DNA of 64,000 nt, from NCBI RefSeq assembly GCF_044792175.1, contig NZ_CP172866.1, one strand, 5' to 3'. The position numbers were made by a program, and so were the translations under genes. Positions 5,526-50,017 of this stretch are shown in pieces. The notes below the pieces were generated by a model. It had not been told where the DNA came from and ran no database searches. It worked only from the letters and a program-made list of their open reading frames with translations. This DNA comes from Corallococcus coralloides. Lineage in GTDB: Bacteria > Myxococcota > Myxococcia > Myxococcales > Myxococcaceae. Positions within the stretch are counted from its first letter, which is position 1, and every line of letters begins with the position of its first letter.

Positions 5526-5659
5526 CTGTAAAGGGGGTCCTCCCGGAGGCCGAAAACTCGGCCTCCGCGCGATTGGCAAGCCCGCTGTTCGGCGGAGCGA
5601 CGCATGCGCGCGCGAGCACTGGAATGTTTCAAAGGGCTTGACGAATGCGCCGTGAGCGC

Positions 5660-6985: not shown

Positions 6986-7917
6986 CGGGGCACTCGCACC
7001 CGTTCGAGCAACTGCTTCAGCACGTCATCCGCGGTGACGCCCTCCACCTCCGCCTCGGCCTTGAGGAGGAGCCGGTGGTTGAGGACGCTGGGCGTCACGG
7101 CCTTCACGTCGTCCGGGGTGACGAAGTCGGTGCCCCGGAGCGCCGCGTGCGCCTTGGCCGCCGCGAGCAGGGCCTGGGCGGCGCGGGGGCTCGCGCCCAG
7201 CCGCACGCGGGGGTGGGCGCGGGTGTCGCGCACGAGCTGCACCACGTACTGGAGGATGGAGTCGTCGCACGCGACGCGCGCCGCGCGGTCCTGCAGCTCC
7301 GTCAGCGTCCCCGCGTCCAGCACGCGGGACACGCCGGGCGGGCGGCCCTCGCGCTGATGGAAGGCGCGCAGGAGCGACGTTTCGGCGTCGCCGTCCGGGT
7401 AGCCCACGCGCACGCGCATGAGGAAGCGGTCCAACTGCGCCTCGGGGAGGGGATAGGTGCCCTCCAGCTCCAGCGGGTTCTGCGTGGCCACGACGAAGAA
7501 GTGGGGCGGCAGCGCGTGGGTGACGCCGTCGATGGTGACCTGCCGCTCCTCCATGGCCTCCAGGAGCGCCGCCTGCGTCTTGGGCGGCGTGCGGTTGATC
7601 TCATCCGCGACCAGGACCTCCGTGAAGACGGGGCCCTTCATCAGGCGGAAGGCCTGCGACTGCGGCTGGAAGACGTTGGTGCCCAGGATGTCCGCGGGCA
7701 TCAGGTCCGGGGTGAACTGCACGCGGGAGAAGGACAGGCCCAGCGCCCCCGCCATGCTGCGCGCGGTGAGCGTCTTGGCGACCCCGGGCACGCCCTCCAG
7801 CAGCACGTGACCGCGCGCGAGGAAGGCCGTCACCAGGTCGGCCAGCACGCGGGGCTGGCCCACGACGGCCGAGCCCAGCGCGTCGAGGAGGCGGGAGAGG
7901 GGCGTGGCGTCGGACAT
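6982..7917 (-). CDS. MoxR-family AAA+ ATPase
   Basis: 311 aa with Walker A GVPGVAKT and Walker B LVADEINR, typical of MoxR, and operon-linked to the DUF58 gene. Confidence 0.9.
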
Positions 7918-11153: not shown

Positions 11154-12275
11154 TCAGGCCCCGGCGGCGCGCGCGGGCATGGGCTGGCCGTTCGCGTCGA
11201 GCTTCGCTCCCGTCCAGCGGTGGCTCTCCGCCTCCTCCATCAGCTCCACCTCGCGGCGGATGCGGGCCCACTCCGTCTCCGGCAGGCCGAGGAACGCCTC
11301 CGCGAGCATCGGGTCGAACTGCGTGCCCGAGCAGCGGCGGACCTCGTCGCGCGCCACGCTCATGGGCCGCCCCTTGCGGTAGGGCCGGTCGGAGGTGATG
11401 GCGTCCAGCGTGTCCACGAGGCAGAAGATGCGCGCCCCGATGACGATCTCCTCGCCTTGGAGCCCCAGCGGGTAGCCCTTGCCGTCCCAGCGCTCCTGGT
11501 GCTGCAGGACGATGAGCGCCGCCTCGTGCAGGTAGGGCATCTTCGCCAGCATCCGGTAGCCGAACTCCGGGTGCAGCTTCATCTCCACCCACTCGTCCGG
11601 CGTGAGCGGCCCGGGCTTGAGCAGGATGGAGTCCCGCACGCCGATCTTCCCGATGTCGTGCAGGAGCGCGCCCTGCTCCACCACGTCCAGCGCCGGCCCG
11701 GTGAGGCCGATCTCCTGCGCCAGCCGCCGCGCGTACAGCGACACCCGCCGCGAGTGCCACTGCGTCTCCGTGTCCCGGTAGTCCAGCGCGCTGATGAGCC
11801 CGTCCAGCAGCCCCGTGGTGCGCTCGATGACCCGGCGCTCCAGCCCCTCGTTGATGGACAGGAGCTCCGCGTTCTTCTCCGCCACCTCGCGCGTCAGCCG
11901 CTCGTTGGCCGCCACCAGCCGGTGGTGCTCGATGGCCTGCCGCACGCTGCTGGTCAGCTCGCTCAGCGCCCACGGCTTGCCCAGCAGCCGGAAGACCTCG
12001 CCCCGGTTCACCGCCTCCGACGCCGTCTTGAAGTCCGCCGCCGCCGTCAGCATCAGCCGCACCGCGCGGGGGTTCTTCTCCCGCAGCGCGGACAACAGCT
12101 CGATGCCGTTGAGGTACGGCATCATGAAGTCCGTCAGCACGACGTCGAAGCCCTGCTCCCGCGCCGCCACCACCGGGTCGCTGTGCGTCACGACCTCGTA
12201 ACCCTCCGCCTGGAGGATCCGGGACAGCGCGGCGAGGATGAGCACGTCGTCGTCCACCACGAGGATTCGGGCCAT
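11154..12275 (-). CDS. response regulator with HD-GYP phosphodiesterase domain (RpfG-like)
   Basis: REC domain with acidic pocket and phospho-acceptor context VVLTDFMMP. HD-GYP motifs HDIGK and HQERWDGKGYPLGL are present. Confidence 0.85.
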   Translation of the reverse strand: MARILVVDDDVLILAALSRILQAEGYEVVTHSDPVVAAREQGFDVVLTDFMMPYLNGIELLSALREKNPRAVRLMLTAAADFKTASEAVNRGEVFRLLGKPWALSELTSSVRQAIEHHRLVAANERLTREVAEKNAELLSINEGLERRVIERTTGLLDGLISALDYRDTETQWHSRRVSLYARRLAQEIGLTGPALDVVEQGALLHDIGKIGVRDSILLKPGPLTPDEWVEMKLHPEFGYRMLAKMPYLHEAALIVLQHQERWDGKGYPLGLQGEEIVIGARIFCLVDTLDAITSDRPYRKGRPMSVARDEVRRCSGTQFDPMLAEAFLGLPETEWARIRREVELMEEAESHRWTGAKLDANGQPMPARAAGA

Positions 12276-18040: not shown

Positions 18041-18871
18041 ATGAACCGCGCAGCCGCCGCAATCTTCCTGGCCCTCCTCTGTTCGGCCTGCCCCAAACGT
18101 CTCGAATTCGGTCCGGAGGGCCGCATCGAGGACGCCCAGACGCTCTACCAGCACGTGCGCGAGCGGCAGGCGAAGGTGGTGAACCTGGAGGGCGACGCCA
18201 AGCTCCACGTGGACTCCCCGCAGGGCAGCGGCACGCTCTCCACCTATCTTTCCATCACCCGCCCGGCCCTCATCCACCTGGAGACGTACGACTTCTTCAA
18301 CCGCCCGGTGGCCTCGCTCGTCTCCGACGGTGAGCGCTTCGGCATCTACCAGGCGCGGGAGAACACGTACCTCCAGGGCCCCGCGAGCGCGGAGAACGTG
18401 TCCCGCTTCCTGCCCGTCGTCCTGCCGAGCGAGGAGCTGGTGGCGGTGATGCTGGGCCAGGTCCCCCTCCTGCCGCCGGAGTCCATGACCCTGGAGTTGG
18501 ACGAGAAGGAGCGGGTCTACGTGCTCAAGCTCCAGCGGGGGCCGGCGACACAGACACTGCGCGTGGACCCCAAGCACCTGCGCGTGGTGAAGAGCGAGGT
18601 CCGGGGCGTGCCGGGCTACGACCTGGCGTTCGAGGACTTCCAGCAGCGGGGCGACCAGTTCTTCCCGGACAAGGTGCACCTCATCGCCGCCTCGGCGGAC
18701 ACGAAGCTGGACCTGAAGTACACGGACATCCGCCTCAACGGCCGCCCGGACCTGACGCTCTATGAAATGGGCGCGCCCGAGGGGGCGAAGGTGGTGGACG
18801 TCGACGCGCGGGGCCAGGAGGTCCGCCCGGAAGGGGCGGTGTCGCAGCCGCCCCCTGCGCCGGGTTCCTGA
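18041..18871 (+). CDS. lipoprotein of unknown function (LolB/DUF4292-like size and composition)
   Basis: Signal peptide with lipobox LLCSAC. No recognisable catalytic motif. Divergent from exbB. Confidence 0.5.
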   Translation: MNRAAAAIFLALLCSACPKRLEFGPEGRIEDAQTLYQHVRERQAKVVNLEGDAKLHVDSPQGSGTLSTYLSITRPALIHLETYDFFNRPVASLVSDGERFGIYQARENTYLQGPASAENVSRFLPVVLPSEELVAVMLGQVPLLPPESMTLELDEKERVYVLKLQRGPATQTLRVDPKHLRVVKSEVRGVPGYDLAFEDFQQRGDQFFPDKVHLIAASADTKLDLKYTDIRLNGRPDLTLYEMGAPEGAKVVDVDARGQEVRPEGAVSQPPPAPGS

Positions 18872-18930
18872 GCTTCCAGGCGTCGAAAGGCAGCGTCCCG
18901 GCGCAAACCGGGTACTATGGCGCGCACGAC

Positions 18931-19680
18931 ATGGCACAGATCAAGCTTGGAGAACTGCTGATCAAGGCGAACGTCCTGCAGGAGAGCCAGCTCAAGGCGG
19001 CGCTCGCCGAGCAGGCCAAGTGGGGCGGGAAGCTGGGCGAGATCCTCGTCCGGATGAACCTCGTCTCCGAGGACATCCTCGTGCGCGCCCTGTCGAAACA
19101 GTTGGGCATGCCGGCGGTGAACCTGGACTCCGTGCAGATGGTGCCGCCGCACGTGAAGGCCAAGATTCCGGCGCAGACGGCGCGCGACTTCTCCGTGGTG
19201 CCGCTGCAACTGCGCGACGACGGCAAGACGCTGGTCGTCGCCATGTCGGATCCGCTCAACGTGCGCGTGCTGGACGAGCTGCGCGCCCTGTCCAAGTGCC
19301 GCATCGTGGCCAACGTGGCCGGGCGCACCTCCGTGGCGCGGGCGTTCGCGCGCCTCTACGAGGAGACGGCGGAGCTGGAGGACGCGGACACCAACTTCAA
19401 GGTGGTGGACGCCCAAGGCCGCACCGTCGTGAAGAACCTCAAGGACCTGGACCCGGCCGCCGCCGTCGCCATGTCCCCCAAGCCCGCCGCCGCTCCGCCG
19501 CCCCGCCAGGCCCCCCCGCCGGAGGCGCCGCGCGCGGCCTCGGGCAGCCCCGCGGAGCTGCTCAAGAGCGTGGAGGAGGTCCAGCGCAAGGAGGTCGCGG
19601 CGCTGAAGGCCATGGTGGAGCTGCTCATCGAGAAGGGCGTTTTCTCCCGCGAGGAATACCTCGCCAAGGTCAAGCGGTAG
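18931..19680 (+). CDS. stand-alone MshEN (GspE N-terminal, T2SSE_N) domain protein; candidate c-di-GMP receptor
   Basis: Two consecutive 24-residue MshEN motifs, IKLGELLIKANVLQESQLKAALAEQ and KLGEILVRMNLVSEDILVRALSKQ. No ATPase domain. Pro-rich linker and a conserved C-terminal helix. Confidence 0.75.
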   Translation: MAQIKLGELLIKANVLQESQLKAALAEQAKWGGKLGEILVRMNLVSEDILVRALSKQLGMPAVNLDSVQMVPPHVKAKIPAQTARDFSVVPLQLRDDGKTLVVAMSDPLNVRVLDELRALSKCRIVANVAGRTSVARAFARLYEETAELEDADTNFKVVDAQGRTVVKNLKDLDPAAAVAMSPKPAAAPPPRQAPPPEAPRAASGSPAELLKSVEEVQRKEVAALKAMVELLIEKGVFSREEYLAKVKR

Positions 19681-19689
19681 CCCCCGGCC

Positions 19690-20693
19690 ATGCGCAAGAA
19701 GATTGGTGAACTCCTCGTCCAGGCCGGAGTGGTGACGGACGAGCAGGTGAAGCAGGCCCTCGCGTCCGGACGGCGCGGCCAGGGCCGCAAGCTGGGTGAG
19801 GTGCTGGTGTCCATGGGCCTGTGCACGGGCCGGGACATCGCGCGGGCGCTGGCGGCGCAGCACGAGCTGCCGTTCGTGGAGATCCCCGAGTACATCCCGC
19901 ATGCGGTGTCCTCGCTGGTGTCCATGGACTTCCAGACCGAGCACCGGGTGCTCCTCTTCGCGGCGGAGCAGGACGGCCGCAGCGAGAAGATCCACGTCGC
20001 GGTGGAGGACCCGGGCAACCTGATGCTGGTGGACGAGCTGCGCTTCCAGCTTCGCAAGCCGCTGAAGGTGTTCGTCGCCGCGCCGGATGACCTGGAGCAG
20101 GCGTTGTCGCGCGGCCGGGGCGAGCCCCTGGACATCGTGGAGGCTGAACCGATGGACATGGACGAGGACGATTCGCCGGACATCCTGACGTCTCCGCCGC
20201 CCCCGCCCGCCGCCGCGCGCGCGCCCACGCCGCCGCGTCCGCCCGCGCCGGCGCTGGACTGGGACCTGCCGCCGCCGCCGCCCAACGAGTCGGGCGTGGA
20301 CGGCGCGGAGGTGCTGGAGGACATCCTGGGCTCCACGCCCCGTCCCAAGGTCCCCAAGGCCCCGCGTCCGCCGCCCCCGCCCGCCGCGGCCCGTCCGCCG
20401 CCGCCTCCGCCCCCCGCGGAGCCGGAGGACCCGAGCAAGCCGCGCGTCCCGGTGGTGCTCTTCGGCGGCGCCGCGCAGGGCGTGAAGCCGTCCGTGGCGC
20501 TCACGCCCAAGCCGGACTTCTCCGAGGAGGACCTGGCGGTGCTGGACGACATCGACCGCATCTCGCGCGGCGAAGAGGCCAGCCTGGACACGGAGAAGGT
20601 GAAGCCCGCGCGCATGGTCGCGAGCCTCATCCGCCTGCTCATCCGCAAGGGGCTCATCCAGGAGGCGGAGTTCCTGGAGGAGCTGGCCCAGAA

Positions 20694-20697
<4 letters not shown>
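19690..20697 (+). CDS. stand-alone MshEN domain protein paralog with long Pro-rich linker
   Basis: Motifs [24 protein letters not shown] and [24 protein letters not shown]. The C-terminal helix is similar to the upstream paralog. Its stop overlaps the next start (GTGA). Confidence 0.75.
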
Positions 20698-21721
<1,024 letters not shown>

Positions 21722-21725
<4 letters not shown>

Positions 21726-22777
21726 GCGAGCCGCTGGTCCAGGTGCGCGACCTGAAGGTGCACTTCCCTGTGAAGGGCGGCCTGCTGGGCCGCACGCGCG
21801 GCACGGTGCGCGCGGTGGACGGCGTGTCCTTCGACGTCGCCCGGGGCGAGACGCTGGGGCTGGTGGGGGAGAGCGGCTGCGGCAAGAGCACCCTGGGGCG
21901 CGCGGTGCTGCGCCTCATCGACCCGACCTCCGGCTCCATCCGCGTGGCCGGTCGCGAGCTGACCGGCCTGTCGCAGCGCGAGCTGCGTCCGCTGCGCCGC
22001 CAGATGCAGCTCGTCTTCCAGGACCCGTACGCGTCGCTCAACCCGCGCATGACGGTGGGGGACATCCTCGCGGAGCCCTTCGCCATCCACGGCCTGGCGA
22101 AGGGCAGGGCGCGCGAGGACGAAGTGCTGGCGCTGCTCGACGCCATGGGGCTGCCCCGCGAGGCGCGCCAGCGCTACCCGCACGAGTTCTCCGGCGGCCA
22201 GCGTCAACGCATCGGCATTGCACGTGCCATCGCGTTGCGTCCGGACCTGGTGGTGGCGGACGAGCCCATCAGCGCGCTGGACGTCTCCATCCAGGCGCAG
22301 ATCGTCAACCTGCTGGTGGACCTGCAGCGCGAGCGCGGGCTCACCTACGTCTTCATCGCGCACGACCTGAAGATCGTCGAGTACGTGTCCACGCGCGTGG
22401 CGGTGATGTACCTGGGCCGCATCGTGGAGGTGGCGCCGTCGCGGGCGCTGTATGCCGGGCCTCGCCATCCGTACACGCAGGCCCTGCTGTCCGCGGTGCC
22501 CGTGCCGGATCCGGAGCGCCCCGGCACACGCCTGCTGCTGCCGGGAGAGCCGCCTTCGCCCCTGTCGCCGCCTTCCGGTTGCTCGTTCCACCCGCGCTGC
22601 CCGCATGCGATGGAGCGCTGCCGCCGCGAGTCACCGCCGCTGTATCCCCTGGGCGGTGGCCACGCCGCGGCGTGCTTCCTGGCCGAAGGGGATTCGCGCG
22701 ACGTGCAGGACGGGCCCGCCGTTTCCGCGTCCGGAGGAGGTGCCGGTGTTCTGGCTCAGCCATCATCACGCGGATGA
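21722..22777 (+). CDS. ABC transporter ATP-binding protein, OppF/DppF-like
   Basis: ATGA overlap with the upstream ATPase. Walker [18 protein letters not shown], and the C-terminal CSFHPRCP zinc-knuckle-like motif typical of OppF. Confidence 0.85.
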
Positions 22778-23184: not shown

Positions 23185-23865
23185 GTGGGCGGTGAAGGGG
23201 ATGGCACCCGTGGCTTCATGGGCACTGGGGGAAGTTTGGCACCCGAAACCTCAGACGAGCAGTTGATGCTCGCCTTCCAGGCGGGAAACGCGCGTGCGTT
23301 CGAAGCGTTGGTGCGCAAGCACCGCGCGCCGGTGTTCAACTTCATCCTGCGCTTCGTGGGCCACCGGGCGCGGGCGGAGGACGTGCTGCAGGAGACCTGG
23401 CTCAAGGTGGTCCGCAGCGCCCGGGAATACGAGCCCAAGGCCCGGTTCACGACCTGGCTGTACACCATCGCGAGGAACCTCTGCGTGGACAGCACGCGCA
23501 AAGAGAGCTACCGCCAGGCGACGTCCCTGGAAGCCCCCTCGGCGGGTGCCGACGGCGACGAGGGACGTCCGCTGGGCGAGGGGCTGCCGGACGCCGGGGC
23601 CAGCCCGGAGCGCGGCGCGCACAACGCCCGCCTCCGGCCCCTGCTGGAGCGGGCCCTGTCGGCCCTGCCGGAGGAGCAGCGCGAGGTGTTCGTGCTGCGC
23701 GAGTACAGCGGCATCCCGTTCAAGGAGATCGCCGAGGTGACGGGCGTGTCCGAGAACACGGTGAAGAGCCGCATGCGCTACGCGCTGGAGGGCCTGCGCC
23801 GCCGCCTGGGTGAGCTGGGCGTGGACGGCGACCTGTCGGAGGATGGAAGGACGGTGGCGGGATGA
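23185..23865 (+). CDS. ECF (group IV) sigma-70 factor
   Basis: Region 2 (FEALVRKHRAPVFNFILRFV) and region 4 (FVLREYSGIPFKEIAEVTGVSENTVKSRMRYAL) signatures. The start is uncertain and may be the ATG 33 nt downstream. Confidence 0.85.
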   Translation: MGGEGDGTRGFMGTGGSLAPETSDEQLMLAFQAGNARAFEALVRKHRAPVFNFILRFVGHRARAEDVLQETWLKVVRSAREYEPKARFTTWLYTIARNLCVDSTRKESYRQATSLEAPSAGADGDEGRPLGEGLPDAGASPERGAHNARLRPLLERALSALPEEQREVFVLREYSGIPFKEIAEVTGVSENTVKSRMRYALEGLRRRLGELGVDGDLSEDGRTVAG

Positions 23866-25292
23866 ATGCCCAGAATGCCCACGCGCACGAGGACCGGCTC
23901 CTCGACTTCGCCTACGGCGAGCTCCCCGCGTCGGAGGCCCACGCGCTGGAGCAGCACGTCCAGGGCTGCGCGCGCTGCACGAAGGCGCTGGCGGACATCC
24001 GCGGCGTGCGCACCGCCATGGCGCAGTTGTCCTCGGAGCCCGCGCCGGACGCGGGCCTGGAGTCGCTGCTCGCGTACGCGCAGCAGTCCGCGCGCCGCGC
24101 CGCCGCCGGCCCCGAGCCGAAGCCCTCGCGCTGGCGCCGCTTCCTCTTGCCCGCGGTGGGCCTGGCCACGGTGGGCACCTTCGGCCTCCTGACGTTGACG
24201 GTGCGCGAGAACCTCGACCTGTCGCCGAACCTGTCACAGCGGGCCGCCCCCAGCGCGGCGATGGAGGCGGAGAAGGTCGCCCCCGTCGCCCCGGCCCCCG
24301 CGCCGTCGAGCGCCCCCCTCGAAGGGGACGCACCCGAGGGCGGCTCGGAGGCCCTGGCGGCCGCGCCGGGCGCGATGGAGCTCAACCGCAATCAGATGGA
24401 GACCAAGGCCCAGCGCAAGGGCACCGCCGCGGCCCGCCCGTCGGACTGGATGAACGCGGGCAGCGGGGGCGCGCTGCTGGAGCGCCGCGCGGACGCGGAG
24501 GCTCCTAAGAAGATGGTGGCCAAGGCCGTCCGGGACGCGGACGGCGAGTTCGCCGCGCTCGAGCCGCCTCCGGCCGCGCTGGAGGCGCTGGAGGCGCCGT
24601 CGAAGGAAGCGGAGGCCCATGACAGCTTCCTCGCGAAGGACGAGCCCGCGCGGGGGCGCGCCTCGGCCAAGGTCAGCGACAAGGCGCTGGCCACGAAGGG
24701 CGACTCCCTCCGGTTGGGTGAGGCGGCCTATGGCCGTGGGCTCGTCTCGGATGACGCCGAGGACACGTCCGCGAGCGCGCCTCCGCCGCCGCCTCCTCCA
24801 GTTGCCTCCGCGCCCGTGGTGCAGGCCGTGCCCATGGCCCCCGCGAGCGTGGGCTCCATCGGCGGTGCGTCGCCGCCGTCCACGCGCGCTCCCGCCGCGC
24901 CCAAGGAGGAGTCCGCCCGGGCCGAGGCCGCGAAGCCCGCTCCCATGGAGAAGTCCGCGTCCCAGGAGGCGATGACGGCGCGCGACCTGTCCGCCCAGGC
25001 CCAGGCCGCCGCGAACCAGGGTGACCGCGCCCGGGAGGCACGGCTGCTGCGCGCCGCGCTCGCGGCCGGAGCCAGCGGCAGCGAGCGGCTGGCCCTGCTC
25101 TCACGGCTCTGCGAGTCCGAGTCCGTCCAGGGCCGGACCCGGGAGGCCGCCGCCGTCTGCGGGCAGATCATCAAGGAGGCCCCCGGCTCCAGCGCGGCGC
25201 AGCTCGCCCAGCGCCGCCTGCGTCAGGCCTCGCCCCCCACGGCGCCGGCGTCCGCGCCGGCCAAGGCCGCTCCTTCCCAGCCCGCGCAGTAG
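23862..25292 (+). CDS. anti-sigma factor with zinc-binding ASD (HxxxCxxC), one TM helix and a long low-complexity periplasmic domain
   Basis: ATGA overlap with the sigma gene. N-terminus has HALEQHVQGCARCTKAL. A TM segment is LLPAVGLATVGTFGLLTLTV. Confidence 0.7.
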   Translation: MNAQNAHAHEDRLLDFAYGELPASEAHALEQHVQGCARCTKALADIRGVRTAMAQLSSEPAPDAGLESLLAYAQQSARRAAAGPEPKPSRWRRFLLPAVGLATVGTFGLLTLTVRENLDLSPNLSQRAAPSAAMEAEKVAPVAPAPAPSSAPLEGDAPEGGSEALAAAPGAMELNRNQMETKAQRKGTAAARPSDWMNAGSGGALLERRADAEAPKKMVAKAVRDADGEFAALEPPPAALEALEAPSKEAEAHDSFLAKDEPARGRASAKVSDKALATKGDSLRLGEAAYGRGLVSDDAEDTSASAPPPPPPPVASAPVVQAVPMAPASVGSIGGASPPSTRAPAAPKEESARAEAAKPAPMEKSASQEAMTARDLSAQAQAAANQGDRAREARLLRAALAAGASGSERLALLSRLCESESVQGRTREAAAVCGQIIKEAPGSSAAQLAQRRLRQASPPTAPASAPAKAAPSQPAQ

Positions 25293-25845: not shown

Positions 25846-26664
25846 ATGTTGAAGGGTAAGACCCCGCTCGTCGTCGCACTGGTGCTCGGTTTGCTCGCGG
25901 GCATCGTGGCCTACTCGGCCATCAAGAAGAAGGAATCGGATGTGCGCCGCGGGTGGAACCTGGTGCCCGTGGTGGTGGCGGGCCAGGACATGCCCGAGGG
26001 TTCGGTCATCACGTACGAGATGATCTCCCAGCGCTCCGTGCCGGAGCAGTTCGTCACCTCGTCGGTGGTGAAGCCGGACTCCGCCAACTACATCGTGAAC
26101 CAGAAGGTGCTGGTGGCGCTGCAGGCCGGCGACCCCATCCTCTGGAGCCAGTTCGAGACGACGAAGGCCGCCGAGCGCCTGTCCACGAAGGTGCAGAAGA
26201 AGGCGCGCGCCATCACCATCGAGGCGAAGCAGACCACGTCCGTGGGCGGGTGGATCCGCCCCAACGATCACGTGGACATCATCGGCACGTTCCGCGATCC
26301 GCAGACGGACGAGAGCGTCGCGGTGACGCTGCTTCAGAACATCATCGTGGTCGCCACGGGCAAGATCACCGGCACCACGAACATCAACCTCATCCCGGAG
26401 AACCAGCGCGAGTACTCCAACGTCTCGCTGATGGTGCTGCCGGAAGAGGCGGAGATCCTGGTGCTGGCGGCGGAGCTGGGGCAGTTGACCCTGTCCCTGC
26501 GCAACGAGGACGACGTGGACCTCATCGAGGAGCGTGGCCGCGCGACCATCAGCACGCTGCTCTCCGGTGAGCGCACCCGCGTGCTGGAGCAGAAGCGCCG
26601 GGAGATCATCCAGATCATCAAGGGCAGTGGCGGCGGCGAGAAGGCCTCGGCCGGAGCTCCGTAG
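25846..26664 (+). CDS. cpaB: Flp pilus assembly protein CpaB (RcpC) family
   Basis: N-terminal TM anchor followed by SAF and CpaB periplasmic domains. Positioned between the pilin and tadB. Confidence 0.85.
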   Translation: MLKGKTPLVVALVLGLLAGIVAYSAIKKKESDVRRGWNLVPVVVAGQDMPEGSVITYEMISQRSVPEQFVTSSVVKPDSANYIVNQKVLVALQAGDPILWSQFETTKAAERLSTKVQKKARAITIEAKQTTSVGGWIRPNDHVDIIGTFRDPQTDESVAVTLLQNIIVVATGKITGTTNINLIPENQREYSNVSLMVLPEEAEILVLAAELGQLTLSLRNEDDVDLIEERGRATISTLLSGERTRVLEQKRREIIQIIKGSGGGEKASAGAP

Positions 26665-26742
26665 TCGTCGCGCGCGGGGCCGCTTCGCCAACGCTGAAGC
26701 GGCCCTGCCGACCCCTCCCTCATCCCCCGGGGATTCGCGCCC

Positions 26743-27588
26743 ATGCTCGCAGGTATCGTCCTCCTTCTCGTCACCGGCTCGGTGTTCTTCTTCAGCCTGG
26801 TGATCTTCAGCGTCCTGTCGAAGGCGTATGAGCAGTACCAGGAGCGCTACGTCGCCAAGTCGATGAACGACTTGAGCGACATGTTCCTCTTCATCGACGC
26901 GCGGCAGATGTTGATCCTCAACATCGCCTGCATGTGCCTTCTGGGCATCCTCAGCTACATCATCTTCAACCCCATCCTGGCGGTGCTCGCGACCATCTTC
27001 GGCTTCTTCCTGCCGATGCTGCTCGTGAAGCACTACCGCAAGCGCCGCATCAAGAAGTTCAACGTGCAGTTGGTGGACGCGCTGCAGGCCATGGCCAACG
27101 CGTTCAAGGCGGGCCTCACGTTCCCGCAGGCCATCGAGCACGTGGCGCGCGAGGCGCTGCCGCCCCTGTCCCAGGAGTTCGGCCTCTTCGTGAAGGAAGT
27201 GAAGCTGGGCGTGCCGCTGGAGGAGGCGCTCATCAACATGGGCCGCCGCGTGGGCAGCGACGACCTGGAGCTGGTGGTGGTGTCCACCAACATCGCGCGC
27301 CAGTTGGGCGGCAACATGGCGGAGATGTTCGAGACCATCTCCACGGTGATCCGCGAGCGCTTCCGTCTGGAAGGCAAGATCGACGCGCTGACGTCCCAGG
27401 GCAAGCTTCAAGGCTGGATCGTGGCGGCCATGCCGGCGGTGCTGGGCATGGTGCTCAACTACATGCGTCCGGACCTGATGGAGCCGATGATGAACCACAT
27501 CTTCGGCTACATCCTGGTGACCCTGATCGCCATCATGGAGATCATGGGCATCCTCATCATCCGGCGCATCGTCAACATCGACATCTGA
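26743..27588 (+). CDS. tadB: TadB-like (GspF-fold) inner-membrane platform protein
   Basis: 281 aa with N-terminal TM helices, a cytoplasmic T2SSF domain and C-terminal TM helices, as is typical of TadB/CpaG. Confidence 0.85.
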   Translation: MLAGIVLLLVTGSVFFFSLVIFSVLSKAYEQYQERYVAKSMNDLSDMFLFIDARQMLILNIACMCLLGILSYIIFNPILAVLATIFGFFLPMLLVKHYRKRRIKKFNVQLVDALQAMANAFKAGLTFPQAIEHVAREALPPLSQEFGLFVKEVKLGVPLEEALINMGRRVGSDDLELVVVSTNIARQLGGNMAEMFETISTVIRERFRLEGKIDALTSQGKLQGWIVAAMPAVLGMVLNYMRPDLMEPMMNHIFGYILVTLIAIMEIMGILIIRRIVNIDI

Positions 27589-27601
27589 AGCGAGGCGCAC
27601 C

Positions 27602-28492
27602 GTGCAGGAAGTCCTGACATTTCTGCTGATGGGCGGCTCGGCACTGCTGACCGCGGGCGCGGTGGCGTTCCTGGGCATCGGCCTGTACACCAACCTCCTG
27701 GAGCGCTTCCTCACGGAAGTCCGCGACGAGTCCGCGGGCGGCATGAAGGGCGCGGGCTCCGTCGCCATCCGCAAGCTGGGCGCGATGAACCGGCGCTTCA
27801 TGTGGCCGGGCTACGAGTCCAAGACGCGCCGCAAGCTGATCAAGGCGGGCGAGCCGTCCCAGTACAAGCCCGAGGACATCATGGCGCTGCAGGAGGTGAG
27901 CGCCTTCCTGGGCCTGCTGGTGGGCCTGTTCGTCGCCAACGGCATCGGGGCGAACCTGGCGTGGTCGCTGCTGGTGATGCTGCTGGGCCTGTTCTATCCG
28001 CTCATCTGGTTGAACGACCAGGTGAAGCGCCGTCACCTGGCCATCAGCCGCGCGCTTCCGTACAACCTGGACCTGCTGACTCTGTCGGTGGAAGCGGGCA
28101 TGGACTTCACGGGCGCGCTGGCGAAGGTGGTGGAGAAGGGCCGCCAGGGGCCGCTGCGCGAGGAGCTGCAGTTGGTGCTCAAGCAGCTCAAGATGGGCAA
28201 GACGCGTGAAGAGGCGCTCAAGGGCATGATCGTGCGCGTGGACCTGCCGTCGCTGACGACGTTCGTCACGGCGCTGATCCAGGCGGACAAGATGGGCACG
28301 AGCCTGGGCAAGGTGCTGCGCATCCAGTCCACGCAGATGCGCATCGACCGCACGCAGCGCGCGGAGAAGCTGGCGGGCGAGGCACCGGTGAAGATGCTCT
28401 TCCCGCTCATCGCGTGCATCTTCCCGACGGTGTTCATGGTGCTCTTCGGGCCCATCGTGTTCCAGTTCATGTTCGGCAACGTCGGGGGCTAG
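27602..28492 (+). CDS. tadC: TadC-like (GspF-fold) inner-membrane platform protein
   Basis: 296 aa. Second T2SSF-domain paralog, typical of TadC/CpaH. Confidence 0.85.
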   Translation: MQEVLTFLLMGGSALLTAGAVAFLGIGLYTNLLERFLTEVRDESAGGMKGAGSVAIRKLGAMNRRFMWPGYESKTRRKLIKAGEPSQYKPEDIMALQEVSAFLGLLVGLFVANGIGANLAWSLLVMLLGLFYPLIWLNDQVKRRHLAISRALPYNLDLLTLSVEAGMDFTGALAKVVEKGRQGPLREELQLVLKQLKMGKTREEALKGMIVRVDLPSLTTFVTALIQADKMGTSLGKVLRIQSTQMRIDRTQRAEKLAGEAPVKMLFPLIACIFPTVFMVLFGPIVFQFMFGNVGG

Positions 28493-28565: not shown

Positions 28566-31457
28566 GTGAAGATCGGCCGGACCTCGGAGAACGACCTGGT
28601 CCTGCATGACCACGGTGTCTCCCGGCGTCATGCCCGCATCACGGCGAGGGATGGGCGTTACTTCGCCGAGGACGTTGGCAGCGCGAACGGCACGCAGTTG
28701 AACGGCCAGCCGCTGGGCGGCCAGAAGCAACTGCGCGACGGCGACCGCATCACCGTGGGGCCGGTGGAGTTCACCTTCGTGTGGGTGGCGCCGGAGGATG
28801 ACGACGACGTCACCCGGCCCATCCGGCGGATGCTCGCGCCGCCGCACGCGAAGGTGTCTCCGCAGGGCGTGGAGCAGGCCTCGCTCGCGGAGATCGAAGC
28901 GGCGCCCACGAGCTACCAGCCGTCGATGCCGGCCATGGCCCGGCCCGCGTCCCCGCCGCGCCCGGGGATGGCCGTGCCCGCCGCGAAGGGTGGGGCGATG
29001 CCGATGCCGGCCGCCACGCCGAAGCGGCCCTCCGCTCCGGATCTACCGGCGGTTGGTGCCTCCGCGCCGGGGGCGGCTGCTCCGGCCCGGACGCCTCCGG
29101 GGCCTCCCGTGCTTGGGGCCTCCGCGCCGGGCCGGGCTGCACCGGGAACTCCCGTGCTGGGCACGCCCACGCCGGGGGCGGCGGCTTCGCCCAAGCCTGG
29201 TGTGCAGGGAGCCTCTGTTCCGGCGACTCCGCCCCGGCCTCCCTCGGGTCCGCCTGCGCTGGGCGCCTCTGCGTCCTCTGCTTCGGGCAAGGTTCCCGCC
29301 GCGCCTTCCGTGGTGGGGAGCCTGGGGCAGGGCGCGACCGCGCCGGCCAGGACTCCCGCGGGCCCTCCGGTGTTGGGTCCCGCGGCTCCCGGCGAGGGTT
29401 CCCCGGCCAGGGCTCCTGCGGCTCCCCCGGTGCTGTCGGCCGGGAACAAGGCCTCGGGAGCTTCCGCCGCCGTCCGTGCCTCCGGGCCGGGACCGTCCTT
29501 GGCGGCCCGGGGCGCAGCGGCTTCGTCACCCGGCCTGCCGTTGATGTCTCCGCCGGGGCTGATGGTTCCGCCTCCTCCCGCACGGCCTCTCGCCGTGCCT
29601 CCTCCCGTGGAGCTGGCCCCCGTGGCGCCGGACGAGCCCGAGGAGCGCACGCTGATGGCGATCTCCACGGTGGACTCGCCCGTGCCCGCCGCCACGCCGC
29701 CTCCCGTGCTGTCCCTCCCGGACATGGACGAGCCCGAGGAGCGCACGCTGATGGCGATCTCCACGGTGGACTCGCGCGTGCCCGCCGCCGCGCCGCCTCC
29801 CGTGCTGCCTCTCCCGGAGCTGGACGAGCCCAACGAGAGCACGCTGATGGCGATTCCCACGGCGGACCTGGCCGTGCCCGCCGCCACACCGCCCCCGGCG
29901 CTCTCCTTCCCGGAGCTGGACGAGCCCGAGGAGCGCACGCTGATGGCGATTCCGGCGACCCCGGAAGCGCCACCGGTTCCCGTCGCGCCGCCGCCGCAGG
30001 AGGCCCCGCCCGCGCTGCCCCCGCCGGCGATGGAGGAGCCCGAGGAGCGGACCGTCCTCGACCTCCGGCCCATCACGCCGGTCAAGCCGCTCGTGGCCCC
30101 TCCGGTGCGCATCGTGAGCGCGCCCGCCGCCGCGCTCGACTCCAGCGAGCCCTCGACCTTCGTCGGCCAGGACGATGACCTCTCCGCGGCCCCCGAGGAG
30201 ACCCGGGCCTCCGGGACCTTCTCGGGCCAGGTCGCGCCCGGACCCGCCGCACCGGCCGCGGCGCCTCCGCCGGCCTGGAGCCCTCCCGTCCCGCCGCCTT
30301 CCGAGGAGCCGGTGACGTTCGTCGGCCACGACCGCGCCCCGCCTGCCCCGGCCCTGGACCCCGGGCTGCTGACGGGCGAAATCCCACTGCTGGCCCATGT
30401 GCCCGCTCCGGACGCGGAGGGTGAAGCCACCCTGCCCGTGCCGGCCAACCTGGATGAGTCCGCCACCCAGCCCGCGCCAAGGGGCCCGGTGACGGTCGTC
30501 GCGAAGGTCGAGCCCTCGTCCGCCGCCGACAAGGCCCGCCAGCGGCGCCAGTTGGGCAAGACGCTCAAGGGCCGGTTCCTCCTCTTCTGGCAGCGCCAGT
30601 CGCTGCCCAGGCGCATCGGCTTCGCGTCGCTGGCGGGCGTGGCCGTGCTGGGCGTGCTGACGCTGCTCGTGGCGCTCGCGGCCCCCTCGGCCATCCGGCT
30701 CCCGGGCCGCGAACCCTTCACGCTGGGCATGGAGCCGGTGCCGGACTCCTTCGGCCTGGGCGAAGGGGTGCGCTGGGTCCACGCCGACGACAAGCTCTTC
30801 GACTTCCGCTTCGTGTCCCCCACGCGCGCCGTGGCGGTGCTGCACTACCAGGCCAGCAACATCGCCCGGGACGAGGTCAACCTGTCCCTCAACGGCGTGT
30901 CCCTGGGCTGGGTGCCCCCGGATACCGCCCAGACGGCCGAGCGTGAGCTGGAGCAGGTCCTCCCGCCCAGCCTCCTGCGGCGCAACGCCAACAACCAGCT
31001 CCTCTTCGACAACGCCCTCAACCCGCCCGGCCGCGACCCCTGGCGCATCTGGAACCTGCGGCTGGAGATCATCCCGGTGCCGGAACTGCCGCCGGATCAG
31101 CTCATCACCTCCGCCCGGGAGGCCGCCAAGGCAGGGGCCCGCTTCTACGAACTCAAGGACGTGGGCGCGGAGAACCTGTTCAAGGCGTGGCGGGAGTACC
31201 GCGCCGCGTGGATCACCCTGGAAGCGCTGGACGACAAGCCGGAGCTCTACGAGGACGTCCGGGAGCGGATCGCCCAGATTTCAACGGAGCTGGACCACCG
31301 CTGCAGCCAACTGATGATGCAGTTCCAGCGGGCGGTTCAGTTCCGCAGCCGACGGGATGCGGTCGCCACCCTGGAAGACGTACGGAGACGCTTCCCTACG
31401 GCCGAGCATCGCTGCCACAATCTCGCGCTGGAAAAAGCCTATGAGCACGAGCTTTAG
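28566..31457 (+). CDS. bitopic FHA-domain protein (cytoplasmic FHA, Pro-rich repeat linker, one TM helix, periplasmic C-terminal domain)
   Basis: FHA signature GRTSENDLVLHDHGVSRRHARI...GSANGTQLNG. TM helix at RRIGFASLAGVAVLGVLTLLVALAA. The FHA beta-1 region (PILLTITQGLQVGRELAFEQAE) is encoded in-frame upstream of the first canonical start, so the true start probably lies near 28497. Confidence 0.8.
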   Translation: MKIGRTSENDLVLHDHGVSRRHARITARDGRYFAEDVGSANGTQLNGQPLGGQKQLRDGDRITVGPVEFTFVWVAPEDDDDVTRPIRRMLAPPHAKVSPQGVEQASLAEIEAAPTSYQPSMPAMARPASPPRPGMAVPAAKGGAMPMPAATPKRPSAPDLPAVGASAPGAAAPARTPPGPPVLGASAPGRAAPGTPVLGTPTPGAAASPKPGVQGASVPATPPRPPSGPPALGASASSASGKVPAAPSVVGSLGQGATAPARTPAGPPVLGPAAPGEGSPARAPAAPPVLSAGNKASGASAAVRASGPGPSLAARGAAASSPGLPLMSPPGLMVPPPPARPLAVPPPVELAPVAPDEPEERTLMAISTVDSPVPAATPPPVLSLPDMDEPEERTLMAISTVDSRVPAAAPPPVLPLPELDEPNESTLMAIPTADLAVPAATPPPALSFPELDEPEERTLMAIPATPEAPPVPVAPPPQEAPPALPPPAMEEPEERTVLDLRPITPVKPLVAPPVRIVSAPAAALDSSEPSTFVGQDDDLSAAPEETRASGTFSGQVAPGPAAPAAAPPPAWSPPVPPPSEEPVTFVGHDRAPPAPALDPGLLTGEIPLLAHVPAPDAEGEATLPVPANLDESATQPAPRGPVTVVAKVEPSSAADKARQRRQLGKTLKGRFLLFWQRQSLPRRIGFASLAGVAVLGVLTLLVALAAPSAIRLPGREPFTLGMEPVPDSFGLGEGVRWVHADDKLFDFRFVSPTRAVAVLHYQASNIARDEVNLSLNGVSLGWVPPDTAQTAERELEQVLPPSLLRRNANNQLLFDNALNPPGRDPWRIWNLRLEIIPVPELPPDQLITSAREAAKAGARFYELKDVGAENLFKAWREYRAAWITLEALDDKPELYEDVRERIAQISTELDHRCSQLMMQFQRAVQFRSRRDAVATLEDVRRRFPTAEHRCHNLALEKAYEHEL
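29631..30060 (+). repeat. about 4.3 copies of a 96-bp in-frame tandem repeat encoding LPxxDEPEERTLMAISTVDSxVPAAxPPPVLx
   Basis: The unit gacgagcccgaggagcgcacgctgatggcgat... recurs at about 29631, 29727, 29823 and 29919, with a decayed copy near 30030. Confidence 0.8.
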
Positions 31458-31484
31458 GGCCCGTGCCCCCCTCAGCAGGACGCG

Positions 31485-33233
31485 GTGACCTCCATGTCGA
31501 ACGCACCACCCCCCGCCCGCCGACGGCCTACATCTGGCACGCCCTCCTCCGGGACCGGTTCGCGCGCGCCGGTCCGCCGGTCGTCCGCCGGTGCCGCCGC
31601 GGCCCGCCCCGCGAAGCTCGTCGTCATCGCCGGCCCCATGGAGGGTGAGGAGTTCGCGCTCTCCGAGCTCGAGTACACGGTCGGCCGCTCCACCGACAAC
31701 CCCATCTGCATCCAGGACACGTCCGTCTCCCGCAAGCACGTGACGCTGCGCAAGGAGTCCGCCGGCTGGATGGTCAGTGACATGGGCTCCGGCAACGGCA
31801 CCATCGTCAACGGCGAGCCCATCTCCGAGGAGACGCTCCTCGCCAACGGCGACGTCATCACGCTGGGCGACTCGGAGCTGCGCTACGAGGACACCGCCAA
31901 CAGCACCGCGAAGGTGCAGGCCCCCACCGGCCCCCGGCCCCGTCCATCCTCGGCGGCGGGCCGCGGTTCCACGGCCGTGCCCACGCGCCCCGCCCGCGAG
32001 GGCCGCGCGCGCCCGCAGACGTCGCGGGCCGCCGCCGCCGCGGAGCTCTCGCCGGAGGTGCAGCGCAAGCGCATGCGGATGAAGCTCGCGGGCGCCGCCG
32101 TGCTGGTGGTGCTCTTCGCGGGCCTGGGCGTCGCGCGCTCGCGCATGCGGCAACAGGCGGAGGAGCAGGGCCGCATCGAGGCGGAGCAGCGCAGCTACCG
32201 CGAGCAGTTGGGCGGCCTCTTCCAGGAGGCGAAGAACCTGGTGCGCGAGGGCCAGTGGCAGCAGGCCAAGGCGAAGCTGGAGGAGCTCCACGCGCAGGCG
32301 CCGGACTACCCCGGCGTGGCGGACTACCTGAAGGCCGCGGAGCGGGAGATCCCCAACCAGAACCACCTGAGCACGGCCCAGGCGGCGCTGGACAAGGGCC
32401 AGTTGGCCAGCGCGAAGGCGTCCATCGAGAAGGTGACCAGCGACACCCAGCTCTACGAGCAGTTGAAGACGGCGCGCAAGAACCTGACGGACGCCGCCGA
32501 CACGCGCACGAAGGAGGCCAAGCGGCTGCTGGACACCCGCCAGTTGGAGAACGTGCAGCAGGCCAAGGCCATCACCGACGACGTGCTCGCGACCTTCCCC
32601 GAGCACCGCGACGGCAAGCTGGTCAACGACGACGCCGTGCGCGTCATCGCGGACCTGACGCGTCCGGACCCCGTGCGCGTGGCCGCGGCGCCCAAGCCGT
32701 GGGAGCCCGCCGTGGACCGCTTCCGCGACGGTGACATCACCGGCGCGGTGGCCATCCTCAACGCGTGCGCGGCCAAGACGTCCCAGTGCAAGCAGTTGAT
32801 GGCGCAGGTGACGGAGTTCGGCAACCTCTACAAGAAGCTGGAGGACCTGGACGCCAAGGGCCTCACCCGCCTGCTCGCGCTGGACAAGGACATCACCGAC
32901 GGGCGCGCCAGCAAGATGGCGCGCAACGCGGGCACCCGCGCGGGCAACATCTATTACAAGAGCGCCGCGGGCGCGAAGGCCGCCGGCCAGTGGTCGCGCG
33001 CCATGGAGTTCGCCCGCCGCGCGCTCCAGGCGGACCCCAGCCACGCGGGCGCCGCCAACATCGTCAACGACCTCAAGGGCAAGGCGAAGGACCTGTACAT
33101 GCAGGCCTACTCCATCAAGGACTCCAGCCCGGAGGACGCGCTGCCCAAGTTCCGCGACGTCGTCGCGATGACGCCGCCCGACGACGAGCTGCACGGCAAG
33201 GCCCAGGGCTGGGTCGAGAAGCTGTCGCGATGA
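31485..33233 (+). CDS. second bitopic FHA-domain protein with TM helix and TPR/coiled-coil-like periplasmic domain
   Basis: Complete FHA domain (LVVIAGPMEGEEFALSELEYTVGRSTDNPICIQDTSVSRKHVTL...GSGNGTIVNG). TM at MKLAGAAVLVVLFAGLGVA. Stop overlaps the xseA start (ATGA). Confidence 0.8.
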   Translation: MTSMSNAPPPARRRPTSGTPSSGTGSRAPVRRSSAGAAAARPAKLVVIAGPMEGEEFALSELEYTVGRSTDNPICIQDTSVSRKHVTLRKESAGWMVSDMGSGNGTIVNGEPISEETLLANGDVITLGDSELRYEDTANSTAKVQAPTGPRPRPSSAAGRGSTAVPTRPAREGRARPQTSRAAAAAELSPEVQRKRMRMKLAGAAVLVVLFAGLGVARSRMRQQAEEQGRIEAEQRSYREQLGGLFQEAKNLVREGQWQQAKAKLEELHAQAPDYPGVADYLKAAEREIPNQNHLSTAQAALDKGQLASAKASIEKVTSDTQLYEQLKTARKNLTDAADTRTKEAKRLLDTRQLENVQQAKAITDDVLATFPEHRDGKLVNDDAVRVIADLTRPDPVRVAAAPKPWEPAVDRFRDGDITGAVAILNACAAKTSQCKQLMAQVTEFGNLYKKLEDLDAKGLTRLLALDKDITDGRASKMARNAGTRAGNIYYKSAAGAKAAGQWSRAMEFARRALQADPSHAGAANIVNDLKGKAKDLYMQAYSIKDSSPEDALPKFRDVVAMTPPDDELHGKAQGWVEKLSR

Positions 33234-49438: not shown

Positions 49439-49441
49439 GCC

Positions 49442-50017
49442 ATGGCGGAAACGCTCGAACGTGACCGCGCCCGGCTGCTGGAGGTGCTCACCCAGCGCTC
49501 CTTCGAGCGCCGGCGCGTGGTGCTCTCCTCCGGCAAGGAGTCGGACTTCTACATCGACTGCAAGCGCACGGCGCTGCTCGCCGAGGGCCACTACCTCATC
49601 GGCCGGCTGCTGCTGGAGGCCATCCGGCGCGACGCTCCGTCGGCGGTGGCCGCGGGCGGGCTGACGCTGGGCGCGGATCCGCTCGCGTCGGCGGTGAGCC
49701 TGACCAGCTTCCTGGAGGGCGGCGGCCAGAAGCCCCTGCACGCGTTCATCGTGCGCAAGGAGCCCAAGGGCCACGGCACCGGCCAGTGGATTGAAGGCCT
49801 GTCCGCGCTGGGCCCCGGCGCCCCGGTGGCCATCGTGGAGGACGTCGTCACGACGGGCGCGTCCACGCTCAAGGCCATCGAGCGCGCGAAGCTGGAGGGC
49901 CTGACGGTGCTGGGCGCCTTCGCGCTGGTGGACCGGCTGGAGGGCGGACGCGAGGCCGTGGAGTCCGCCGGCCACCGGCTCACCACGCTGTTCACACGCA
50001 AGGACTTCATCCCGTGA
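49442..50017 (+). CDS. pyrE: orotate phosphoribosyltransferase
   Basis: 191 aa with the type I PRTase PRPP-binding loop VAIVEDVVTTGAST. Confidence 0.85.
   Translation: MAETLERDRARLLEVLTQRSFERRRVVLSSGKESDFYIDCKRTALLAEGHYLIGRLLLEAIRRDAPSAVAAGGLTLGADPLASAVSLTSFLEGGGQKPLHAFIVRKEPKGHGTGQWIEGLSALGPGAPVAIVEDVVTTGASTLKAIERAKLEGLTVLGAFALVDRLEGGREAVESAGHRLTTLFTRKDFIP

Follow-up and report, generated by a model that had tools for sequence, protein, structure and literature searches.

What does an MshEN domain do when it is made as a protein of its own? To our knowledge, MshEN has hitherto been studied as a cis-regulatory domain of enzymes. The question is raised by a stretch of Corallococcus coralloides DNA of 64,000 nucleotides (nt) and 72% GC, hereafter called the window, in which two tandem genes encode MshEN proteins upstream of a Tad-like pilus gene array. 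We call the short protein P1 and the long one P2; the closest matches to both are from Corallococcus (98-99%). An earlier note on this DNA had taken the pair for candidate cyclic di-GMP (c-di-GMP) receptors that head the Tad-like array and might act in trans on the pilus motor or platform. P1 and P2 prove to belong to a widespread family, and in distant lineages the pair adjoins Tad genes more closely than it does in the window.

Stand-alone MshEN proteins

P1 and P2 lie on the same strand, separated by 9 nt, and both open reading frames (ORFs) were found as first described, with the peptides then quoted. Their third-position GC (0.95 and 0.94) is typical for real genes in a window of this composition. 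Both proteins pass the threshold of the Pfam MshEN hidden Markov model (HMM), the search that the note had proposed as a check (PF05157; 55.6 bits for P1 and 49.2 bits for P2, gathering score 23.1). They are also above the cutoff of the NCBIfam model NF053729 'c-di-GMP_motif', which covers the 53-residue MshEN_N (64.8 and 58.5 bits, cutoff 38). No T2SSE-type ATPase domain is found in either protein by Pfam or NCBIfam, and the polypeptides stop at 249 and 335 amino acids (aa). The NCBIfam equivalog models for secretion ATPases match them only in the N-terminal ~150 residues, far under the cutoffs. Passing the cutoffs in both collections upholds the idea of stand-alone MshEN proteins with c-di-GMP-binding signatures and no ATPase domain.

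Residues 1-160 of P1 align with the N-terminal domains of PilF and PilB proteins of solved structure (E-values 1e-38 to 8e-21), including Myxococcus xanthus PilB (3JC8). P1 also aligns in register with Vibrio cholerae MshE, so that K5 of P1 corresponds to R9 of MshE. The AlphaFold model of P1 consists of a four-helix bundle (residues 2-58, MshEN_N), an alpha/beta MshEN_C subdomain (60-147) and a low-confidence beta-hairpin (156-168), followed by a disordered Pro/Ala linker (172-207) and a SHOCT-like hairpin (208-249, with helices at 208-234 and 240-248). The P2 model has an MshEN head (1-142), a disordered Pro-rich linker (143-278) and three helices (279-292, 305-319 and 325-334), the last two of which form the hairpin that it has in common with P1.

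In Foldseek searches, the P1 model matches c-di-GMP-bound V. cholerae MshEN (5HTL; target-normalised template-modelling score 0.84, root-mean-square deviation 2.2 Å), Thermus PilF GSPII-B (8PDK; E-value 1e-7) and the PilB N-terminal domain in the FimX-PilZ-PilB complex (7LKO). MshE and other PilB-type ATPases thus share with P1 the fold, the two 24-residue motifs in register and an MshEN_N as well as an MshEN_C subdomain. However, those proteins carry a C-terminal secretion ATPase, whereas P1 and P2 have a disordered tether and a short hairpin instead. Because the ORFs, the domain scores, the lack of an ATPase domain and the fold match to 5HTL agree, P1 and P2 are confirmed as real, conserved genes for stand-alone MshEN proteins.

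Cyclic di-GMP-binding motifs

The extended rule for MshEN domains calls for two copies of the motif (R/K/L)LGxx(L/V/I)(L/V/I)xxG(L/V/I)(L/V/I)xxxxLxxxLxxQ with a 5-residue spacer (PMC11731258). The consensus was widened to (R/K/L)LG... on the strength of the affinity of Thermus PilF GSPII-B; Lys or Leu at position 1 confers nanomolar affinity on that domain, with a dissociation constant of 6 nM (PMC11731258).

In P1, motif I comprises residues 5-28, KLGELLIKANVLQESQLKAALAEQ, and motif II comprises residues 34-57, KLGEILVRMNLVSEDILVRALSKQ; the spacer between them is AKWGG, 5 residues. P1 departs from the original consensus only in having K for R at position 1 and N for G at position 10, and it differs from MshE at the same two positions (Lys and Asn). 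It fits the extended rule everywhere save at position 10, where N replaces G in both motifs. Asn at this position is also present in bona fide PilB MshEN domains. As in PilF GSPII-B (8PDK; PMC11731258), Lys opens motif I, although GSPII-B is part of an ATPase that has three N-terminal domains in tandem and P1 and P2 are separate polypeptides. In MshE, the Q32A substitution costs about ninefold in affinity, and G11L abolishes binding. The binding-critical residues of MshE (L2, G3, L17, L21 and Q24 of the motif) are all in P1 and are conserved family-wide. Residues 1-66 and the last 42 residues of P1 are nearly invariant from Corallococcus to Archangium.

P2 is less regular. Its motif II is intact except at position 17, where a conservative change puts I for L, and its motif I is degenerate, with Gly in place of Gln at position 24. 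At that position 117 P2 orthologues have mostly Lys (48), Gln (36) or Arg (26), with Gly in 6, and in distant P2-like proteins the motifs are canonical. The description of both motifs as intact therefore stands for P1, apart from the G-to-N change at position 10, and not for motif I of P2 with its spacer of 6 residues. Judged from these sequences, P1 and P2 probably bind c-di-GMP, and P1 is a probable receptor of high affinity. Because MshE Q32A still retains binding at an approximately ninefold loss, the change from Gln to Gly in motif I suggests that Corallococcus P2 is probably a weaker c-di-GMP binder and not a dead one.

C-terminal hairpin and the wider family

By hhalign, the P1 and P2 C termini are homologous (probability 91%, E-value 1e-6). 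Together with the AlphaFold models, this substantiates the Pro-rich linker and the common C-terminal helical module that had been noticed in the two proteins. In all the pairs examined, short and long partners alike retain a tail motif of approximately ALKAMVELLIEKGVFSREEYLAKV. Among P1 orthologues, Gly 236 is nearly invariant and Glu 242 is invariant; the Gly equivalent to G236 is kept in at least 90% of the wider family.

These tails resemble the SHOCT domain (PF09851; PMC3581485), a unit of ~30 residues at the extreme C terminus made of two amphipathic helices in which a Gly and a Glu are conserved, and the P1 tail fits this description. SHOCT is the best Pfam match for the family tails (10 of 76, plus 2 for SHOCT_2; best E-value 9.2e-5). 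However, these matches are all under the gathering score wherever a score is shown, and neither the P1 nor the P2 tail matches PF09851 at all (gathering score 27 bits), so membership in SHOCT was rejected. A reading of the hairpin as a third MshEN_N half-motif was also set aside. It aligns in register with motif I by hhalign, but the alignment is weak (E-values 0.044 to 0.0006, probability 1-29%), and the likeness is therefore held to be a mere resemblance.

An exhaustive HMMER search with P1 matched 127 cluster representatives at E <= 1e-30, of which more than 100 are 215-400 aa long and align with P1 over its whole length, with 34-60% identity. Motifs were tallied in 102 hairpin-bearing representatives (clusters at 50% identity). 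Motif I opens with R or K in 94 of them and motif II in 90; G3 is present in 95 and 99, respectively, and Q24 in 101 and 95. The W-G-G of the spacer is retained in 89 to 101 of the 102. Across the family, head and tail are separated by a Pro/Ala linker of ~35 to ~1200 residues. A free-standing MshEN head followed by a tether and a tail that resembles SHOCT is thus a widespread architecture, which usually comes in short/long pairs, and it is new according to the literature searched.

The longest P2-like protein seen has 1412 aa, with a Pro/Ala-rich linker of ~1200 residues and the same terminal hairpin (locus L075, 10830-15068); a PilZ gene adjoins it. In two other loci (L072 and L078), the MshEN pair is followed by an extracytoplasmic function (ECF) sigma factor gene and a gene for a giant TSP3-repeat protein. 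The DNA for the Pro-rich linker of P2 (20194-20411 in the window) is of low complexity, of the CCG/CCGCCG type. Several Corallococcus contigs stop inside P2 (L001, L003, L004 and L008) or within the CCG-rich linker of P1 (L046 and L047), and such breaks fit the 'partial' P2 protein records in databases.

Linkage to Tad genes

In the window, genes for TolR and TolQ on the minus strand are followed on the plus strand by DUF4292, P1, P2, OppD-like, OppF-like, DUF2085, ECF sigma, anti-sigma, Flp-like prepilin, CpaB, TadB, TadC, FHA, FHA-TPR and xseA. The pair does not sit at the head of the Tad-like array, as the earlier note had it. Rather, it heads an operon with the OppD/OppF-like and DUF2085 genes, and six genes spanning 5.1 kb lie between the pair and CpaB.

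A scan of a genome collection with very specific peptide patterns returned Myxococcaceae and Archangiaceae only; deep conservation was beyond its reach because the patterns were so specific. Across 65 loci of these families, the order TolR-TolQ, DUF4292-P1-P2-OppD-OppF-DUF2085-ECF is held wherever the contig reaches. The exceptions are a few deep metagenome-assembled genomes (MAGs) in which P2 is missing and three MAGs with an insertion between DUF4292 and P1. CpaB-TadB-TadC are within 10 kb of the pair in Corallococcus, L034 and L058. A first view was drawn from these loci and the M. xanthus operon, namely, that the unit is an OppDF-DUF2085 operon and that proximity to Tad genes is incidental. 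Sampling of more distant relatives overturned this view.

A metagenome scan with a profile built from a 16-sequence alignment returned 80 loci, which were annotated with HMMs made from window-type genes. The distant relatives sampled have 36-62% identity and GC contents of 0.50-0.72. In L077 (GC 0.50, 38% identity to P1), the genes P1-P2-DUF2085-small ORF-CpaB-TadB-TadC-FHA are contiguous amid unrelated flanks. A compact block on one strand, P1-P2-DUF2085-(Flp-like pilin)-CpaB-TadB-TadC-FHA, occurs also in L137, L141 and L147 of the metagenome scan. In L156, P1-P2-DUF2085 is followed by Flp-like genes and by CpaB at the contig end, and in L131 and L148 Flp-like genes come after P1-P2-DUF2085. 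L100 and L107 have the longer, Myxococcaceae-type version. L071 (45% identity to P1) has P1-P2-OppD-OppF-DUF2085 and then a homologue of the window's Flp-like prepilin (phmmer E-value 6.6e-16), again amid unrelated flanks. In L066 (36% identity to P1), TolR-TolQ and DUF4292-P1 are followed 3.5 kb on by CpaB-TadB-TadC-FHA-FHA, and the stop codon of DUF4292 overlaps the P1-like start. The link of the pair to the Tad-like array consequently holds, and is stronger than the local view suggested, given the contiguous one-strand block in distant lineages. Linkage to CpaB, TadB, TadC and FHA genes was found in the clade of the window and in L066, L077, L100, L107, L137, L141, L147 and L156; it is not universal.

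Neighbours were counted for relatives below 50% identity to P1, only on contigs with enough flank and, for Tad genes, with at least 10 kb downstream. P2 is a neighbour in 19 of 26 loci, DUF2085 in 8 of 17, an ECF sigma factor in 4 of 17 and the ABC (ATP-binding cassette) ATPases in 2 of 23; DUF4292 is directly upstream in 14 of 31. Tad genes on the same strand within 10.8 kb occur in 6 of 15 loci, and Tad or Flp-like genes in 8 of 15. By a rough estimate, which was not computed, the chance expectation for Tad linkage is well under 1%. Apart from two close pairs, the Tad-linked loci share 43-59% identity, and their GC contents run from 0.50 to 0.70; therefore, they represent several lineages. 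DUF2085 comes after the MshEN pair in every sampled locus in which the pair is linked to Tad genes, and the best-supported reading is that DUF2085 is the most faithful companion of the pair wherever Tad genes follow. A search for DUF2085 homologues gave only close orthologues among the matches listed and no independent contexts.

The Myxococcaceae arrangement is the union of two patterns, one linked to Tad genes and one to DUF4292 and the ECF sigma factor. The second pattern may mark a paralogous subfamily.

The DUF4292/LolB-like gene is the commonest gene upstream of P1-like genes in distant lineages (L070, L072, L074, L075, L078, L128, L129, L140 and L146). It is preceded by a gene for a TPR protein in L070, L074 and L075 and by one for a 570-aa protein without a Pfam match in L072. 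One idea is that the DUF4292 lipoprotein, which would reside in the periplasm or outer membrane while the receptors are cytoplasmic, has a pilotin-like role for the secretin. In one lineage (L051, L055 and L091-L095; P1 58-64% identical), P2 is absent and an OppD-like gene directly follows P1, so the pair is not obligatory. Lone P1-like genes, with neither P2 nor DUF2085, adjoin genes for small FHA-domain proteins in L068 and L076; FHA is a domain over-represented in the Kil system.

Orthologues in Myxococcus xanthus and the Kil system

P1 and P2 are direct orthologues of MXAN_4667 (86% identity) and MXAN_4666 (~56%) of M. xanthus DK1622 and are proteins of the same kind. Wang et al. 2016 include both orthologues in their Supplementary Table 3, among 18 predicted c-di-GMP-binding MshEN proteins of M. 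xanthus (PMC5013675). Kuzmich et al. 2022 list them among 17 MshEN genes, with vegetative expression and a slight fall in development (PMC8844925). Because the proteins are already catalogue entries, the MshEN pair as a bare observation is not new. In the literature searched, no function, ligand test or Kil link has been published for MXAN_4667 or MXAN_4666, and no functional work was found on MXAN_4661-4668 or on stand-alone MshEN proteins.

'Operon 24' begins with MXAN_4667, which has a strong transcription start 5 nt upstream of its start codon (PMC8844925). The operon continues with MXAN_4666, 4665, 4664, 4663 and 4662, of which MXAN_4662 also has a start of its own (PMC8844925). A TACTAT hexamer 12 nt before the ATG of P1 is consistent with the start mapped for MXAN_4667. 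A promoter and terminator scan from P1 to the sigma gene revealed no sigma-70 promoter and no convincing terminator; the sole plus-strand terminator-like site falls within the P1 coding sequence.

By position and content, the Tad-like genes of the window are assigned to kil cluster 2 (MXAN_4648-4661). The published kil region ends at MXAN_4661, and the ATPase KilF, the secretin and the peptidase are encoded in kil cluster 1 (PMC8460266). The scanned ORFs of the window, every long ORF included, contain no gene for a secretion ATPase, secretin or prepilin peptidase. The earlier remark that a Tad ATPase gene is missing locally is thus correct, but it poses no puzzle, because KilF is encoded in kil cluster 1. 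According to a 2026 preprint, assembly of the prey-killing Kil machine at sites of prey contact takes place 'through unknown spatial determinants'.

A possible role and its alternatives

What was observed is the domain identity, the motif conservation, the fold, the operon-like arrangement and the conserved linkage; from these we infer ligand binding, partners and a direction of regulation. We favor a reading of P1 and P2 as a conserved cytoplasmic c-di-GMP receptor/adaptor pair that is functionally part of the Kil (kil cluster 2) neighborhood, and we give it tentatively, at a little under an even chance. In each protein, an MshEN head as the proposed sensor is joined by a flexible Pro/Ala tether, which varies greatly in length, to a SHOCT-like C-terminal hairpin. 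The N-terminal four-helix bundle would bind c-di-GMP, tightly in P1 with its Lys-led motifs and probably more weakly in Corallococcus P2. Binding would re-orient the MshEN_C (N1E-like) subdomain and alter its partner-binding surface, as in Thermus PilF GSPII-B. The hairpins might hold both proteins at one shared site, for which the membrane protein DUF2085, co-conserved with the pair, is the most plausible candidate, and the output could be a c-di-GMP-dependent licensing or blocking of the assembly of the Kil pilus machine.

Tad ATPases lack the MshEN N-domain found in PilB, MshE and GspE, and the pair may supply this regulatory domain in trans. MshEN_C/N1E is a docking module, which places GspE on GspL in type II secretion and PilZ on PilB in Xanthomonas. 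Binding of c-di-GMP re-orients the two subdomains of PilF GSPII-B (PMC11731258). Given docking through MshEN_C and this re-orientation, a tethered MshEN head could control the Kil platform or motor in trans. In the Xanthomonas FimX-PilZ-PilB complex (7LKO), a separate c-di-GMP protein likewise controls a type IV filament motor via the MshEN/N-terminal surface. That system differs in that an EAL domain senses c-di-GMP and PilZ relays the signal to the PilB N-domain, whereas P1 and P2 are free-standing MshEN proteins with a proposed Tad-type target. Action on the Kil motor or platform is conjecture, and a route through the sigma/anti-sigma pair or the ABC ATPases is equally open. In Myxococcaceae, the output may run partly via the inserted OppD/OppF-like ATPases and the ECF sigma/anti-sigma pair.

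Several points weigh against this proposal. In the window, the direct operon partners of the pair are ABC ATPases, not Tad proteins. The region downstream of the pair is rearranged in Archangium and Cystobacter. A second group of distant loci has DUF4292-P1-P2 followed by an ECF sigma factor or by nothing, with no Tad genes within 10 kb (L072, L078, L133/L134, L135, L157, L075 and L146). Part of the linkage could be inherited synteny and not function, especially in L066, which shares upstream genes with the window. In motif I of P2, the L, L and Q expected at positions 2, 17 and 24 are replaced by I, V and G, and a spacer of 6 residues follows. Just one of five AlphaFold models of P1 is confident. 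The literature searched holds no binding, interaction or phenotype results for P1, P2 or their orthologues, and neither Kil paper mentions c-di-GMP or the genes of the MshEN pair.

The first alternative is transcription control. P1 and P2, loaded with c-di-GMP, might act on the ECF sigma factor or its anti-sigma factor, and so on kil cluster 2 or other envelope genes, with the pilus machine untouched. A precedent is Streptomyces RsiG, reportedly a c-di-GMP-armed anti-sigma factor. In the window the sigma/anti-sigma genes are directly upstream of the pilin and CpaB genes. In Myxococcaceae an ECF gene comes after the pair; such a gene is present in 6 of 6 loci at 50-70% identity and in 4 of 17 below 50%, and it follows the pair even in distant loci that lack Tad genes (L072, L078, L133/L134, L135 and L157). 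However, there is no ECF sigma gene between the pair and the Tad genes in L077, L137, L141, L147 and L156, nor in L071 and L066, and we know of no MshEN protein that binds a sigma or anti-sigma factor. We regard this alternative as unlikely.

Alternatively, the pair may be a c-di-GMP switch for an orphan OppD/OppF-like ABC ATPase dimer and DUF2085, unrelated to the pilus, with the proximity to kil genes being historical. Overlapping stop and start codons run along P2-OppD-OppF-DUF2085, these genes are transcribed as a single operon in M. xanthus (PMC8844925), and the five-gene block recurs in L071 amid unrelated flanks. The ABC ATPases are present in 7 of 7 loci at 50-70% identity, and in L078 the P2-like gene is directly followed by one for a different ABC ATPase. 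Below 50% identity, however, they are found in the 2 of 23 loci noted above, whereas the pair, its hairpin and DUF2085 persist without them; moreover, L071 retains a Flp-like pilin gene directly after DUF2085. We regard this reading as quite unlikely.

It is also conceivable that the MshEN heads bind PilB partners as decoys or competitors, or buffer c-di-GMP, and so tune type IVa pili or exopolysaccharide rather than Kil. The closest sequences of solved structure are indeed PilF and PilB N-terminal domains, and M. xanthus has 17-22 MshEN proteins and type IV pili that are regulated by c-di-GMP. Yet no pil genes are near the pair in any of ~150 loci, where the conserved neighbors are DUF4292, DUF2085, the ECF sigma factor and Tad genes. 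Gene context thus gives no support to this role, which we consider very unlikely. A structural or scaffold protein with an MshEN-like fold and no c-di-GMP binding, as in XpsE, would suit the Asn residues at position 10 of P1, the longer spacer and missing terminal Gln of P2, and the precedent of certain MshEN domains known not to bind (PMC5013675), but it is improbable because of the family-wide conservation of the binding-critical residues in P1, the Asn 10 of bona fide PilB domains and the scores of both proteins above the curated c-di-GMP-motif cutoff.

The conserved neighborhood of kil cluster 2 is hereby extended upstream by a probable c-di-GMP receptor pair and the DUF2085 membrane protein, and candidate regulators can be named in the model organism: MXAN_4667, MXAN_4666 and MXAN_4663. 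The recurrent linkage of an MshEN pair with DUF2085 and Kil-type Tad genes is new according to the literature searched, and it suggests that contact-dependent predation may be under c-di-GMP control. A bolder form of the proposal holds that P1, P2 and DUF2085 decide when and where Kil assembles at prey contact, so that c-di-GMP would gate contact killing through free-standing, tethered MshEN proteins; this we put forward as a doubtful but definite possibility.

Gene content of the window

The features discussed above are collected in Table 1. The OppD/OppF-like ATPases have no permease or binding-protein gene nearby. In the window, the Flp-like prepilin gene alone separates the anti-sigma gene from CpaB; at this interval M. 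xanthus has KilM4, KilN4 and KilL4 (PMC12075869).

Table 1. Coordinates of the MshEN pair and of neighboring features in the window
Feature	Position	Strand	Remarks
DUF4292/LolB-like lipoprotein	18041..18871	+	Directly upstream of P1
TACTAT, -10-like hexamer	18913..18918	+	12 nt 5' of P1 ATG; consensus resemblance plus orthologue data
P1, short MshEN protein, 249 aa	18931..19680	+	Orthologue of MXAN_4667
P2, long MshEN protein, 335 aa	19690..20697	+	Orthologue of MXAN_4666; stop overlaps OppD-like start
OppD-like ABC ATPase	20694..21725	+	Start overlaps P2 stop
OppF-like ABC ATPase	21722..22777	+	Overlaps OppD-like gene
DUF2085 small membrane protein, 135 aa	22746..23153	+	From GTG 22746; CARC motif
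ECF sigma factor	23185..23865	+	MXAN_4662 orthologue
zf-HC2 anti-sigma factor	23862..25292	+	
Flp-like prepilin, 100 aa	25311..25613	+	RRG/QAMVEYS (G/XXXXEY motif), then hydrophobic helix; no Pfam match
CpaB/RcpC, TadB-like and TadC-like genes	25846..28492	+	Kil cluster 2 counterparts by position and content: KilB, KilG and KilH
Two FHA-domain proteins, 963 aa and 582 aa (latter with TPR)	28566..33233	+	Close the Tad-like array

Two further genes in the window may be related to c-di-GMP. One (41248-43761, plus strand) encodes a hybrid histidine kinase with the architecture GAF-HisKA-HATPase-REC and a weak C-terminal match to GGDEF; it is a second c-di-GMP-related gene near the kil cluster, and its architecture resembles that of M. 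xanthus SgmT, a c-di-GMP-binding kinase. The other (11154-12275, minus strand), 6.7 kb upstream of P1, encodes a response regulator with REC and HD_5 domains, of HD-GYP type, which is a possible c-di-GMP phosphodiesterase.

Elsewhere, three consecutive genes on the plus strand (48068-50643) encode a ParB_N-like protein of 456 aa, a weakly phosphoribosyltransferase-like protein of 191 aa and a protein of 209 aa without a Pfam match. On the minus strand, a MoxR-type AAA ATPase gene followed by a DUF58/VWA gene (5660-7917) forms an ordinary MoxR-VWA pair, which adjoins a gene for a large SNF2-family helicase (2697-5600, minus strand).

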